A DNA stretch of 64,000 bases from Pseudomonadaceae bacterium (lineage in GTDB: Bacteria > Pseudomonadota > Alphaproteobacteria > UBA2136 > UBA6156): NCBI GenBank assembly GCA_024236095.1, contig JACKLD010000012.1:149695-213694 (forward strand), read 5' to 3'. Each line of letters starts with the position of its first letter. Positions within the stretch are counted from its first letter, which is position 1. Shown here one piece after another: positions 51,001-54,000 of this stretch. A program made the position numbers.

Positions 51001-54000
51001 CCACGGTAAAGCCGTCATTCCAGCGAAGGCTGGAACCCAGGGCAGATGACTCTCACGCAAGCTCATGTAACAAATCTTTCCACTGGGGGTTCCGTTCTTC
51101 AACAAGCCGCAACTTCCATGCACGCTGCCATGCCTTGATCTGGCTTTCACGCTGAATGGCCTGCTCAATATCTTCATGGAATTCATAGTAGACCAAAGTG
51201 TTAACCTTGTACTTGCCTGTGAACCTTGAACCGCCACCGTCCTTGTGTTCCACCACACGACGACGGATTTCATTGGTAACGCCCACATACAGCGTTCCGT
51301 TCCTTTGGCTGGCCATGATGTAAACATACCCACTCATTGCCTTTCGCTCTGGGTTCCAGCCTGCGCTGGAATGACGGTTTTGTGTCTCATCTCACTTCTC
51401 CTCCACCGTTTGCGGTTCCCAATGACTGGCGGTCACACCGCCGCCCACCTTGGGCTGGGTAAGCGTCATGCTGTCTTCAGGCTTGCGCAACACCTGCTTG
51501 GCAATGTTCTGGCGCTTCACATCGCTGCGGCGGCGGTGGGTCAGCACGATGGCGCCGACCATGGCGGTCAGCAGCACCAGACCCGCCATCTGGAATGGCA
51601 GATTGTAGTCGGTAAACAGCAATGCGCCCAAGGCGGCGGCCGAGGTATCGGCCCCCTCCCCGATGGGGTTGCCCACGCCGGAAATCGGCGCCGCATATGC
51701 CGCCAACAGCAGCTCGGCCAGCAACGCCAGCATCACCACCGCGCCCAATGGCAAATAGGCGGCCATGCCCTCGCGCAGCTTCACGAAATCAATATCAATA
51801 GTCATCAGCACGAAGAGGAACATCACTGCAATGGCACCCACATACACCATAATCAGCAGCAGCCCCAAAAACTCCGCCTGCAACAAAATGAACAGCCCCG
51901 CCGCATTCAGGAAGGTGAACACCAGCCCCAGCACCCCCACCATCGGGTTACGCGCCAGCACCACCGTGCCCGCCCCCAGAATGATGGCAGTGGCAAAGGC
52001 AAGAAAGAGGATGTCGGCTAGCATAGTTCCCTCCCCGCGTCATTCCCGCGAAAGCGGGAATCCAGCTTACCTAAACTCTGGATTCCCGCTTTCGCGGGAA
52101 TGACGCCCTTTGTTAAGATGTACCGAGCAGTCTGCGCTGGAATGACGGTTTTGTGTCTCATCTGTACCCCCCATCCTTCTTCAACCGCTCCGCCAGCGTC
52201 GGCTCCAGCCGCTCGCCGTTGGCCAGCAATTTGGCTTTGGTATAAACCAGCGTTTTGCGGTCTTCGGCGGCAAACTCCATGTTGGGGCCTTCCACAATGG
52301 CATCCACGGGGCAGGCTTCCTCGCACAAACCACAGTAAATGCACTTCACCATGTCGATGTCATACCGCGTGGTGCGGCGGCTGCCGTCGCTGCGCGGTTC
52401 GGCCTCGATGGTGATGGCCTGCGCGGGGCACACCGCCTCGCACAGCTTGCACGCAATGCACCTCTCCTCCCCGTTGGGGTAGCGCCGCAATGCGTGCTCG
52501 CCCCTGAAGCGCGGGCTAATCGGCGTCGTCTCATACGGATACATCAGCGTGTACTTTTTGCGGAACAGGTTGGCCAGCGTAATGCCGAAGCCCTGCAACA
52601 TATCCAGCAGGAGGAACTGTTTGAGGTGGCGGAGAAGGTTTTTCATCTTGTTACCCACCCCATACCATATTTCCATACATCTTCACATAAAACGCGGTGG
52701 CAACAAGCCACACAAGGCTGAGGGGCAAAAAGATTTTCCAGCCCAGCCGCATCAACTGGTCGTAGCGGTAGCGGGGCAGCGTGCCGCGCGCCCACACCAT
52801 GAAGAACAGAATCGCCACCACCTTCAGCGCAAACCAGACAACGCCCGGCACCCACGTCAACGGCACCACGCTCACAGGAGGCAACCAGCCGCCGAGAAAC
52901 AGGATGGCGGTGAAGGCACTCATGGTGATCATCGCAATGTATTCGCCCAAAAAGAACATGCCGAAGTACATGCTGGAGTACTCGACGTTGTAGCCCGCCA
53001 CCAACTCGGCTTCCGCTTCAGGAAGGTCGAACGGGTGGCGGTTGGTCTCGGCCAGGATGGACACAAGGAACATCACGAATGCCGGAAATGCGGGGATGGC
53101 AAACCACATGCCCTGTTGCGCTTCCACAATCGCCGAGAGGTTCATGCTGCCCGCCAACAACACCACCGAGAGGATGATGAGGCCGAGGCTGACCTCGTAA
53201 CTCACCATCTGCGCGCCGCTGCGCACCGCGCCCAGAAACGGGTATTTGCTGTTGCTGGCCCAGCCGGCCATCAAAATGCCGTACACCGAAAGACTGCTCA
53301 CCGCCAGCAGGTACATCACGCCCAAATTGACATCGGCCACCACCCAGCCCTTGTCCACCGGAATCACCGCCCACGCCAGCAGGCTGGGCACAAACACCAT
53401 GGCAGGTGCCAGCATGAACATCAGCTTGTTGCTGCCTTCCGGCACAAACGGCTCTTTGAAAAACAGCTTCACCGCATCGGCAATCGGTTGCAGCAGGCCA
53501 AACCAGCCCACGTACATCGGCCCGTGGCGCAGGTGCATCCAGCCCAGCACCTTGCGTTCAAACCACGTGGTGTAGGCCATGCCCAGCAGCACCGGCACCG
53601 CCACCAACAAACACGTCAACACAATCCACGCCAGCGTCAGCGTGTTGTCCCAAGTGATGAGATTGGTTGCGTAGAGGGTGAGGAGATCAAGCATCACACC
53701 CCCTCCGCCCACACGAGGCCGTCATCCCCGCGCAGGCGGGGATCCACGTTACAAACCGTGGCGTAACGCCACACCATATCAATCCAGCGTCTCATACAAA
53801 TCTTCCCATGCATCGTTGGTTTGCAAAATTAACCCCACTTTCCAAGCACGATTCCATTTCTTGATTTGCTTTTCGCGGGCAATGGCATCGCGGATATCCG
53901 CAAACTCTTCCCAATACACCAAGGTTTTCAAACCATACTTCTTGCTGAATCCCTCATAAACCCCATCACGATGTTCCTGCATCCGTTTGTGCAACGATGC

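Follow-up and report, generated by a model that had tools for sequence, protein, structure and literature searches.

We analysed a stretch of 64,000 nucleotides (hereafter the window) from an uncultured proteobacterium (assembly GCA_024236095.1, contig JACKLD010000012.1, positions 149,695 to 213,694; coordinates below are those of the window), in which an inverted pair of short repeats separates nuoI from nuoJ and three genes for small GIY-YIG nucleases are inserted elsewhere in the same nuo operon. The pair (52037-52106) is, we are practically certain, a homodimer of repetitive extragenic palindromic (REP) units carrying a CGTC tag, in the HH arrangement with the tags outside, and belongs to the class that includes dRS3 of Neisseria. 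The dimer itself is ordinary, being another member of a repeat class catalogued in 2013. Our results suggest that the interest lies not there but in the reproducible nesting of GIY-YIG genes of the UPF0213 family within dimers of CGTC-tagged REPs, an association that we hold with high confidence to be non-random. The overall explanation that we favour, and consider probable, combines the HH dimer, this association, and a nuclease that would act on the REPs.

CGTC-tagged REPs have been defined by an unpaired CGTC tag, a stem of 8-9 bp starting with A-T/T-A, a loop of 4-5 nt and a CCA tail (Di Nocera, De Gregorio & Rocco 2013, BMC Genomics 14:522; PMC3733652). They occur mainly in Alphaproteobacteria and mostly take the form of HH dimers; family CGTC-1 in Neisseria has been equated with dRS3, and the superfamily also takes in RPE-4 and RPE-6 of Rickettsia (PMC3733652). 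The left arm of the nuoI/nuoJ pair (52037..52065, plus strand) is one such unit, GCGTC ATTCCCGC GAAA GCGGGAAT CCAG, and the right arm (52078..52106, minus strand) is its exact reverse complement. In both arms the unpaired tag (GCGTC|ATTCCCGC...) is followed by an 8-bp stem of ATTCCCGC and GCGGGAAT that starts with A-T and T-A, by the 4-nt loop GAAA, and by a CCAG tail that fits CCA. The arms are 29 nt each and 100% complementary, and their tails face each other across a 12-nt spacer, CTTACCTAAACT (52066..52077), the whole structure measuring 70 bp. The back-to-back doublet noted in the original prediction is therefore real, except that the spacer is 12 nt rather than 11, the arms are 29 nt rather than 30 bp, and the copies are inverted, not direct. 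Since every sequence feature of the class is present, what had been called an "empty repeat-spacer-repeat" is a standard HH homodimer, and since this is the commonest form of the class, the doublet need not be derived from a gene-containing precursor. It resembles CGTC-1 REPs in tag, stem, loop, CCA(G) tail, HH form and intergenic position just after the upstream open reading frame (ORF), and differs from the surveyed CGTC-REPs in its spacer, which is usually 20-100 bp (PMC3733652).

The 20-bp core of the dimer arm (52042-52061, ATTCCCGCGAAAGCGGGAAT) fits the dRS3 consensus ATTCCCNNNNNNNNGGGAAT, as in Neisseria, where dRS3 pairs bracket short variable segments (Bentley et al. 2007, PMC1797815); other units of the window, with the variant stems ATTCCAGC and ATCCCCGC, do not fit the strict consensus. 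Neisseria intergenic mosaic element (NIME) arrays, i.e. long arrays of dRS3 alternating with RS elements of 50-150 bp, have not been seen outside Neisseria, and for them a dRS3-specific recombinase, itself unidentified, has been hypothesised and a prophage transposase suggested (PMC1797815). The nuoI/nuoJ repeat is not of this kind, being an isolated dimer with a 12-nt spacer; unlike NIME, the window has mostly isolated dimers and its bracketed segments include a nuclease gene, and its sole array-like stretch is a series of half-sites at 56289-56398.

The window contains the repeat motif 11 times where 0.02 occurrences are expected; a generic detector (GTC, stem, loop, complementary stem, CC) scores 12 units, compared with one at most in shuffled sequences. 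Altogether we count 12-13 full units and at least five half-sites, compared with no more than one in shuffles, and the HH arrangement is represented by one gene-less dimer and three pairs that hold a gene. The dimer is predicted to fold into a perfect 29-bp stem (z = -8.0 as RNA, z = -13 as DNA). No REP position is called as an intrinsic terminator (GC-rich hairpin followed by a T run), and the absence of T tails, which eliminates a terminator reading of the hairpins, fits the place of the dimer within the nuo operon, where it is read through by transcription. A search of the whole window against Rfam at the gathering threshold returned no family.

All three GIY-YIG genes of the window share the orientation of the operon, and each is bracketed by convergent REPs with the tags outside, i.e. 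it sits inside an HH dimer. GIY1 (51053..51337, minus strand), a 94-aa standalone nuclease of the UPF0213/Slx1-like type between nuoJ and nuoK, has its upstream REP at 51349..51376 (minus strand, stem ATTCCAGC) and its downstream REP at 51013..51040 (plus strand). The GIY2 cassette (53720..54151, minus strand) lies between nuoG and nuoH and consists of a REP (53720-53747), the gene (53779-54069) and a second REP (54124-54151), with the variant stem ATCCCCGC. The GIY3 cassette (56399..56775, minus strand), upstream of nuoG, has the same composition (REP 56399-56426, gene 56433-56723, REP 56748-56775), and between it and the nuoG start lies the array of half-sites (56289..56398, plus strand), in which GCGTCATTCCYGC and a segment of about 21 nt resembling a ribosome-binding site (RBS) recur with a period of about 30 nt. 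This array contains 3-4 tandem units, the last of which ends in the ATGAC of nuoG and there resembles the REP terminus GGAATGAC. The doublet is built on the same plan as the pairs around these genes, belonging to the same repeat family with its tags likewise outside, so the original prediction was right to see in it, architecturally, their gene-less version.

The encoded proteins (94-96 aa) match PF01541 with E = 1e-13 to 2e-17, and an alignment of 17 sequences shows no variation at the GIY, YIG, Arg27, His31 and Glu64 positions. UPF0213 has been placed in the prokaryotic Slx1-like branch of standalone GIY-YIG domains, whose members are treated as vertically inherited repair-type enzymes (Dunin-Horkawicz et al., PMC1564403). 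The window proteins belong to this branch and not to that of homing endonucleases or UvrC (PMC1564403): each is a standalone domain of about 95 aa similar to BH0048 and EF2693, with profile matches to the UPF0213 structures 1zg2 (E = 8.5e-10) and 1ywl (E = 1.8e-7). PF01541 and these structures are all that the bracketed genes match, with no trace of a HUH/Y1 (IS200-like) transposase, and the proteins end with the catalytic domain, lacking the C-terminal NUMOD or helix-turn-helix module of homing endonucleases; matches to TIGR01453 reach just 19-23 bits, against a cut-off of 56. A tblastn search for degenerate GIY-YIG genes elsewhere in the window (E up to 10) yielded only the three intact genes. 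Two further ORFs of 94 aa (45926-46210 and 33606-33890) proved spurious.

The association extends well beyond the window. Around 86 GIY-YIG loci the generic detector gives 6.33 hairpins per kb within 130 nt of the gene and 0.296 per kb in the rest of the contigs, an enrichment of about 21-fold, with 0.0085 per kb in 48 unrelated nuo loci as control. Where both flanks are available, a hairpin is present on at least one side in 64 of 81 loci and on both sides in 40, and 34 of these 40 pairs are convergent; median distances are about 31 nt (REP to gene) and about 22 nt (gene to REP), and half-sites are enriched 11-fold near the genes. Among metagenome loci, taken as the 80 best matches to GIY1 from the GIY alignment scan, 41 of the 75 with usable flanks have the gene enclosed by an inverted repeat of 16 nt or more, always in the frame GTC(A/G)T-stem-loop-stem-CCAG, with stems that covary between loci. 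Proteins flanked by the same stem type are detectably more alike, by about 3.5 percentage points; this difference is small and confounded by ancestry, and we did not use it as evidence of specificity.

A scan of viral contigs with the hairpin pattern gave at least 120 hairpin-bearing stretches, and all six GIY-YIG genes found in 120 of these adjoin hairpins. Adjacent hairpins are mostly convergent (24 of 47 pairs), and the gaps between them fall mainly into the ranges of 14-59 nt and 265-378 nt, with two between. In four viral contigs (L077, L093, L101 and L144) small phage ORFs of 52-95 aa, unrelated to GIY-YIG, are individually bracketed by convergent CGTC hairpins, so that in some phage genomes hairpin pairs delimit other small gene cassettes.

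Individual bacterial genomes show the nesting in several forms. The gene of Aeromonas caviae is bracketed by convergent hairpins; that of Azospirillum lipoferum 4B, located between sufB and sufC, has an HH dimer to either side; Novosphingobium pNL2 has a variant hairpin pair; and Neisseria gonorrhoeae has a single homologue (49.5% identity) inside a dRS3/NIME array. In S. meliloti the gene is flanked solely by variant hairpins, which the generic detector does not score. Tandem half-site arrays like that at 56289-56398 stand beside GIY-YIG genes in the loci L205 and L215, in Planktothrix (L259) and in N. gonorrhoeae (L254). The nesting of UPF0213 genes with CGTC REPs extends over three proteobacterial classes (Alpha-, Beta- and Gammaproteobacteria) and, with a variant repeat, is also seen in a cyanobacterium. 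A. lipoferum, S. meliloti and Neisseria were among the species of the CGTC-REP survey, which reported no associated enzyme gene ("association to TPase genes: -"; PMC3733652), so the presence of GIY-YIG genes inside such dimers sets our cases apart from those described there. A 2025 REP survey does not mention GIY-YIG, and our literature search, which left subscription-only papers outside, found no report linking GIY-YIG genes to REP-type repeats, so that novelty is provisional.

The original prediction also drew attention to a string common to the ends of nuoI and nuoJ. The 30-mer ATGAGACACAAAACCGTCATTCCAGCGCAG (minus strand) has exactly two occurrences in the window (51361-51390 and 52132-52161; none expected), and the shared sequence extends to 36 nt with 35 of 36 identical (51357-51392 and 52128-52163, both on the minus strand). 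The nuoI-side copy is composed of the last nuoI codon AGA, the stop TGA with its overlapping ATG, 11 nt GACACAAAACC, and half a REP (52128..52147, minus strand) that consists of the CGTC tag, the stem arm ATTCCAGC, the loop GCAG and then ACTG, and cannot fold alone; the copy is in other words a half-site, which keeps the tag, the first stem arm, the loop and 3-4 more nucleotides before it diverges. The nuoJ-side copy runs on into the complete upstream REP of the GIY1 cassette. That both genes end with this string holds for nuoI, whose stop (52158-52160) is the TGA within it, and only approximately for nuoJ, which stops at a separate TGA (51392-51394) located 5 nt upstream of that of the string (TGAGATGAGAC...; TGA-GA-TGAGAC...), the latter being out of frame with nuoJ.

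Read in the orientation of the genes, the shared string starts on the ancestral start codon of the next gene. The nuoI end (...TAC AGA TGA) has an ATG overlapping the stop, as in relatives, and the nuoJ end (...AAG TGA G ATG) matches the corresponding junction AAGTGACATG in the relative L253. After that ATG both sites have an identical 12 nt, AGACACAAAACC, outside the REP consensus, followed by the same REP subtype (stem ATTCCAGC, loop GCAG). As judged from the sequence, the two strings are copies of one element end, complete at the left end of the GIY1 cassette and truncated within the second stem arm at nuoI; the half-site at the nuoI stop is accordingly a truncated paralogous copy of that end, made of the 12-nt private flank and the first half of the REP. 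Its probable origin is copying from one gene junction to the other at their common AGATG microhomology, or else a deletion that left it in place. Copying or conversion, in either direction, at the AGATG of both junctions, or later deletion, may explain the pair of strings.

Comparison with relatives decides between insertion and descent. The nearest NuoJ among species-representative genomes is 66% identical and comes from metagenome-assembled genomes of Alphaproteobacteria or "Proteobacteria", and closer relatives (72-77%) come from metagenome assemblies. Exact-protein look-ups of GIY1, NuoK and NuoI for population variants gave no entry. L250 and L253 are repeat-free in this region and have the start codon of nuoJ overlapping the nuoI stop (ATGA); nuoJ and nuoK are separated by 2 nt in L249 (SRR30202056) and by 1 nt in L253. 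The hairpin motif is absent from the eight closest GTDB nuo loci, and the GACACAAAACC... string from the orthologous nuoI and nuoJ ends. The original prediction had proposed this very comparison, identical ends in genomes without the repeat being the outcome that would speak for descent; instead, the repeat-free relatives have the ATGA overlap or the 1-nt gap without the string. Since the string begins at the ancestral start codon of the next gene, it arrived by insertion. The further suggestion that recombination has remodelled the gene ends is not borne out: NuoI ends in ...DGGYR, exactly at the conserved ...YR end of all orthologues, and NuoJ in ...PQTVEEK, like its counterparts in L249, L250 and L005, so both coding ends are intact and at conserved positions.

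On the far side of GIY1 the 3' end of nuoJ, the RBS and the ATG are duplicated: the nuoK-side copy ACCGTGGAGGAGAAGT (50992..51007, minus strand) pairs with 51394-51409, and in a gapped match of about 22 nt up to the ATG ACCGTGGAGGAGAAGTAGCCATG (50985-51007) resembles ACGGTGGAGGAGAAGTGAGATG (51388-51409), the nuoK-side copy being similar to the intact, ancestral junction of relatives. The GIY3 cassette is flanked by two diverged copies of the first ~30 nt of nuoG. These duplications vary in both extent and location: at GIY1 the segment comprises about 22 nt, at GIY3 about 30 nt from the 5' end of nuoG, and at GIY2 and nuoI/nuoJ the duplication is weak. They are therefore not a classical target-site duplication of fixed length.

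The insertions are bridged by open reading frames. Between nuoI and nuoJ a frame of 47 codons (52161 to 52018, minus strand) begins with an ATG that overlaps the nuoI stop (ATGA), crosses the half-site and the whole dimer, and ends in a TAG that overlaps the nuoJ ATG. An 18-codon leader (51390 to 51334, minus strand) starts 1 nt after the nuoJ stop, crosses the REP, and ends in a TGA overlapping the GIY1 ATG. At GIY2 the ATG that overlaps the nuoG stop (from 54183, minus strand) opens 38 codons in frame with GIY2 and then continues into it, and at GIY3 a frame of 176 codons (56815 to 56285, minus strand) crosses the whole cassette in another frame than that of the gene, its start overlapping the stop of the preceding ORF and its own stop overlapping the nuoG start, in each case as ATGA. 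Each ancestral ATG now opens a frame through inserted material that stops on the next start codon. The chance of the 47-codon frame being open is about 0.14, which is suggestive only; any alternative frame is open in only 8 of 86 GIY-YIG genes. Together, the bridging frames suggest selection that would keep translational coupling across the insertions, and the dimer probably persists since its 47-codon frame keeps nuoJ translationally coupled. A similar layout was seen without any REP in L250, where a 62-nt insertion between nuoJ and nuoK (840-903) starts right after the ancestral nuoK ATG, which now opens an ORF of 17 codons followed by a new RBS and ATG.

As to mechanism, the system resembles that of REPs and REP-associated tyrosine transposases (RAYTs; Nunvar 2010; Bertels & Rainey 2011, PMC3116915): the repeats are short palindromes that mostly form inverted doublets, which fold into a long hairpin (as in the doublets called REPINs), a gene for a single-domain nuclease-type protein is flanked by inverted copies of the dispersed repeat, each gene goes with numerous non-coding copies, and genomes differ in the sequence of the repeat. 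RAYTs, however, are HUH/Y1 (IS200-like) transposases acting on GTAG-tagged REPs, whereas here the tag is CGTC and the enzyme a UPF0213/Slx1-like GIY-YIG nuclease; the CGTC REPs are partnered with such genes inside HH dimers much as RAYT genes lie between REPs of the GTAG type. The RAYT of E. coli has been shown to cleave its REP, and Slx1 is a structure-specific nuclease. From this analogy and this activity we propose that the candidate GIY-YIG enzyme would recognise and cut the REP hairpin or the cruciform of the dimer; the break would be repaired from another REP locus, whereby REPs, dimers and occasionally the gene itself would be copied, and aborted events would leave half-sites and junction duplications. 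That the candidate nuclease acts on or mobilises REPs is, in our estimation, about as probable as its opposite. Free-standing GIY-YIG homing genes such as the Seg genes of phage T4 and I-TevI offer a second comparison, since they too place a nuclease gene between conserved genes in the same orientation and make spread by break and repair plausible. Homing enzymes differ in having a C-terminal DNA-binding domain and long unique sites, whereas the window proteins comprise the catalytic domain alone, and what they are linked to is a dispersed repeat, not a single allele.

The origin of the dimer can be considered against this background. The original prediction offered it either as the target before insertion or as a derivative that has lost its gene, the latter implying that a GIY-YIG cassette once lay between nuoI and nuoJ and that its gene disappeared by recombination between the flanks. 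The tags-outside architecture is indeed identical to that of the filled cassettes, and the nearby half-site, a 35/36 copy of the left end of GIY1, shows that cassette-derived sequence has reached this junction. Yet that half-site is of a different subtype (ATTCCAGC) from the adjacent dimer, the dimer arms (ATTCCCGC stem, GAAA loop) are unlike those of all three cassettes, and neither the 12-nt spacer nor the 27-nt linker contains similarity to a cassette, the best local scores for residual GIY-YIG sequence lying below those of shuffled controls. Moreover, the closest relative, L249, has a ATTCCCGC hairpin at the same nuoI/nuoJ junction, about 30 nt upstream of the nuoJ start, where its contig ends (a further hairpin lies between its nuoK and nuoL), so the repeat there predates the split of these lineages, and the class exists by default as HH dimers without a gene (PMC3733652). 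We regard gene loss as very improbable; the sequences lend no support to a recent event at this site or to a recent origin of the dimer from the cassettes of the window, and its status as an emptied cassette is not demonstrable. The main rival keeps the dimer as a vacant target: the GIY-YIG genes would be independent selfish genes of the homing type that land on REP dimers, while the REPs spread or persist by other means. Insertion sequence (IS) elements are documented to insert in REPs of Pseudomonas, Neisseria and Sinorhizobium (PMC3733652), the genes stand between matched arms as expected after insertion into the spacer of a homodimer, hairpins far outnumber genes (six GIY-YIG genes in 120 hairpin-bearing viral contigs), and the three divergent copies of the window suggest independent arrivals. 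It is harder to accommodate that the spacer of the empty dimer has no match in the spacer halves flanking the genes, that half-site arrays and extra dimers cluster beside the genes, which suggests local REP activity over a single insertion, and that no dimer encloses the gene in Azospirillum, L205 or Neisseria. The 94-aa catalytic domain also has no separate DNA-binding domain of the kind with which classical homing enzymes recognise long targets, and altogether we consider this explanation rather unlikely.

A different possibility is that the hairpins are regulatory or structural RNA elements of the host, e.g. mRNA stabilisers, RNase III sites or attenuators, retained for the expression of the operon, and that their occurrence near GIY-YIG genes is incidental, dispensable DNA being clustered in permissive intergenic gaps. 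REPs have been proposed to be RNA elements and are found mostly just downstream of ORFs (PMC3733652), the dimer is predicted to give a 29-bp duplex in the nuo transcript, and insertions between the nuo genes of this lineage include other, unrelated genes as well. L250 and L253, however, run the same operon, with overlapping genes, without hairpins, so these are not needed; there is no terminator signature; and permissiveness explains poorly why, across three proteobacterial classes and, as a variant, in a cyanobacterium, hairpins are enriched 21-fold up to 130 nt from GIY-YIG genes and have matched convergent arms at 20-30 nt from where the gene begins and ends. This explanation, too, has little probability in our view. 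The explanation that we favour, a nuclease acting on the REPs that surround its gene, must itself be set against several observations that count against it. The putative binding and cutting of REPs by UPF0213 proteins is reached by inference, and since REPs are known landing sites for unrelated IS elements (PMC3733652), it does not follow from the enrichment alone that the repeats owe their spread to the nuclease. GIY1, GIY2 and GIY3 are only 48-62% identical to one another, which makes them old copies and gives no sign of recent transposition of the gene within the genome. No hairpin is detectable at 17 of the 81 loci, six of the 40 two-sided cases lack convergence, the genes of Neisseria and L205 are placed between arrays instead of inside one dimer, and convergent hairpins bracket other small ORFs in some phage contigs. 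The 80 metagenome loci are probably clustered phylogenetically and hence not independent, and proteins flanked by the same stem type are barely more alike than others (63.4% vs 60.0%), which shared ancestry could explain. Finally, each bridging frame, taken singly, could be due to chance, as the value of 0.14 for that between nuoI and nuoJ illustrates.

The operon that harbours these elements is transcribed from the minus strand in the order nuoF (57176-58462), an ORF of 124 aa without family match (56812-57186), nuoG (54183-56288), nuoH (52651-53712), nuoI (52158-52676), nuoJ (51392-52024), nuoK (50673-50987), an ORF of 172 aa again without family match (50150-50668), nuoL (48155-50146), nuoM (46240-47847) and nuoN (44299-45750). 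The gap between nuoI and nuoJ measures 133 nt and contains both dimer arms. At the end of nuoM (46240-46330, minus strand) the final 18 codons run through a CGTC REP (...TVIPAQAGTQSDGGGVHE*), just upstream of which about 33 nt are perfectly duplicated in tandem (DMWRAPVEAM twice), and the stop overlaps the ATG of the following gene; nuoM is a genuine case of a repeat entering a coding end, unlike nuoI and nuoJ. The following gene, located between nuoM and nuoN (45747-46238, minus strand), encodes a GNAT acetyltransferase (PF13673, E = 3e-19) and has overlaps of the ATGA type at both ends; a similar gene is found in the relative L007, but between nuoH and nuoI. In the nuo loci of the window and the relatives L001-L007 many unrelated small genes lie between nuo genes, with occupants and junctions that vary by genome; as judged from ORF translations they seem to include MazG-like, NUDIX-like, GFA-like and GNAT proteins, a short-chain dehydrogenase/reductase (SDR), and ORFs without a Pfam match. 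In L003, whose NuoJ is 59% identical, a GIY-YIG gene (2029-2457) occupies the junction between nuoG and nuoH, the same as GIY2, to which its product is 42% identical, and is followed by a degenerate half-site GGTCATCCCGCGGG...; this common junction could reflect an old shared insertion or recurrent use of the site.

Outside the nuo operon, REP units or half-units are found at 33878-33990, 35354-35530, 36868-36893 and 26823-26880, where they lie between lptD, surA, a gene for a solute-binding protein and rsmA/ksgA, and also after rplI. A longer composite repeat, CTCCCAAGTCATCCCGTTGANGAACGGGATCCACGANCAACCTATAAGCCCACGGCC, has two copies, at about 33878 and 35474, and in the REP at 26823 the stem arms are seemingly split by an insertion of about 40 nt.

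For the organism, the window shows how essential, translationally coupled operons tolerate insertions: these fall on the ancestral start codon of the next gene or close to it, and open frames bridge them. For the repeats, the GIY-YIG gene nested in CGTC REPs is a concrete, testable candidate for the class of enzymes that the survey of the superfamily lists as missing (PMC3733652), and the same nuclease is a candidate for the dRS3-specific recombinase, so far unidentified, postulated for NIME-associated recombination near antigen genes. Tentatively, and somewhat below an even chance, UPF0213/Slx1-like nucleases may be the missing dedicated enzymes of the whole CGTC-REP superfamily, including dRS3/NIME and RPE-4/RPE-6. 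With equal reserve, such a partnership may constitute a second pairing of REP and enzyme, independent of HUH transposases and parallel to that of REPINs and RAYTs, in which repair would spread the repeats and drive local recombination. If this is true, it would give a function to UPF0213, a very widespread family of unknown role, and would extend the REPIN-RAYT-like relationship between a REP and its enzyme to a second, unrelated nuclease fold.

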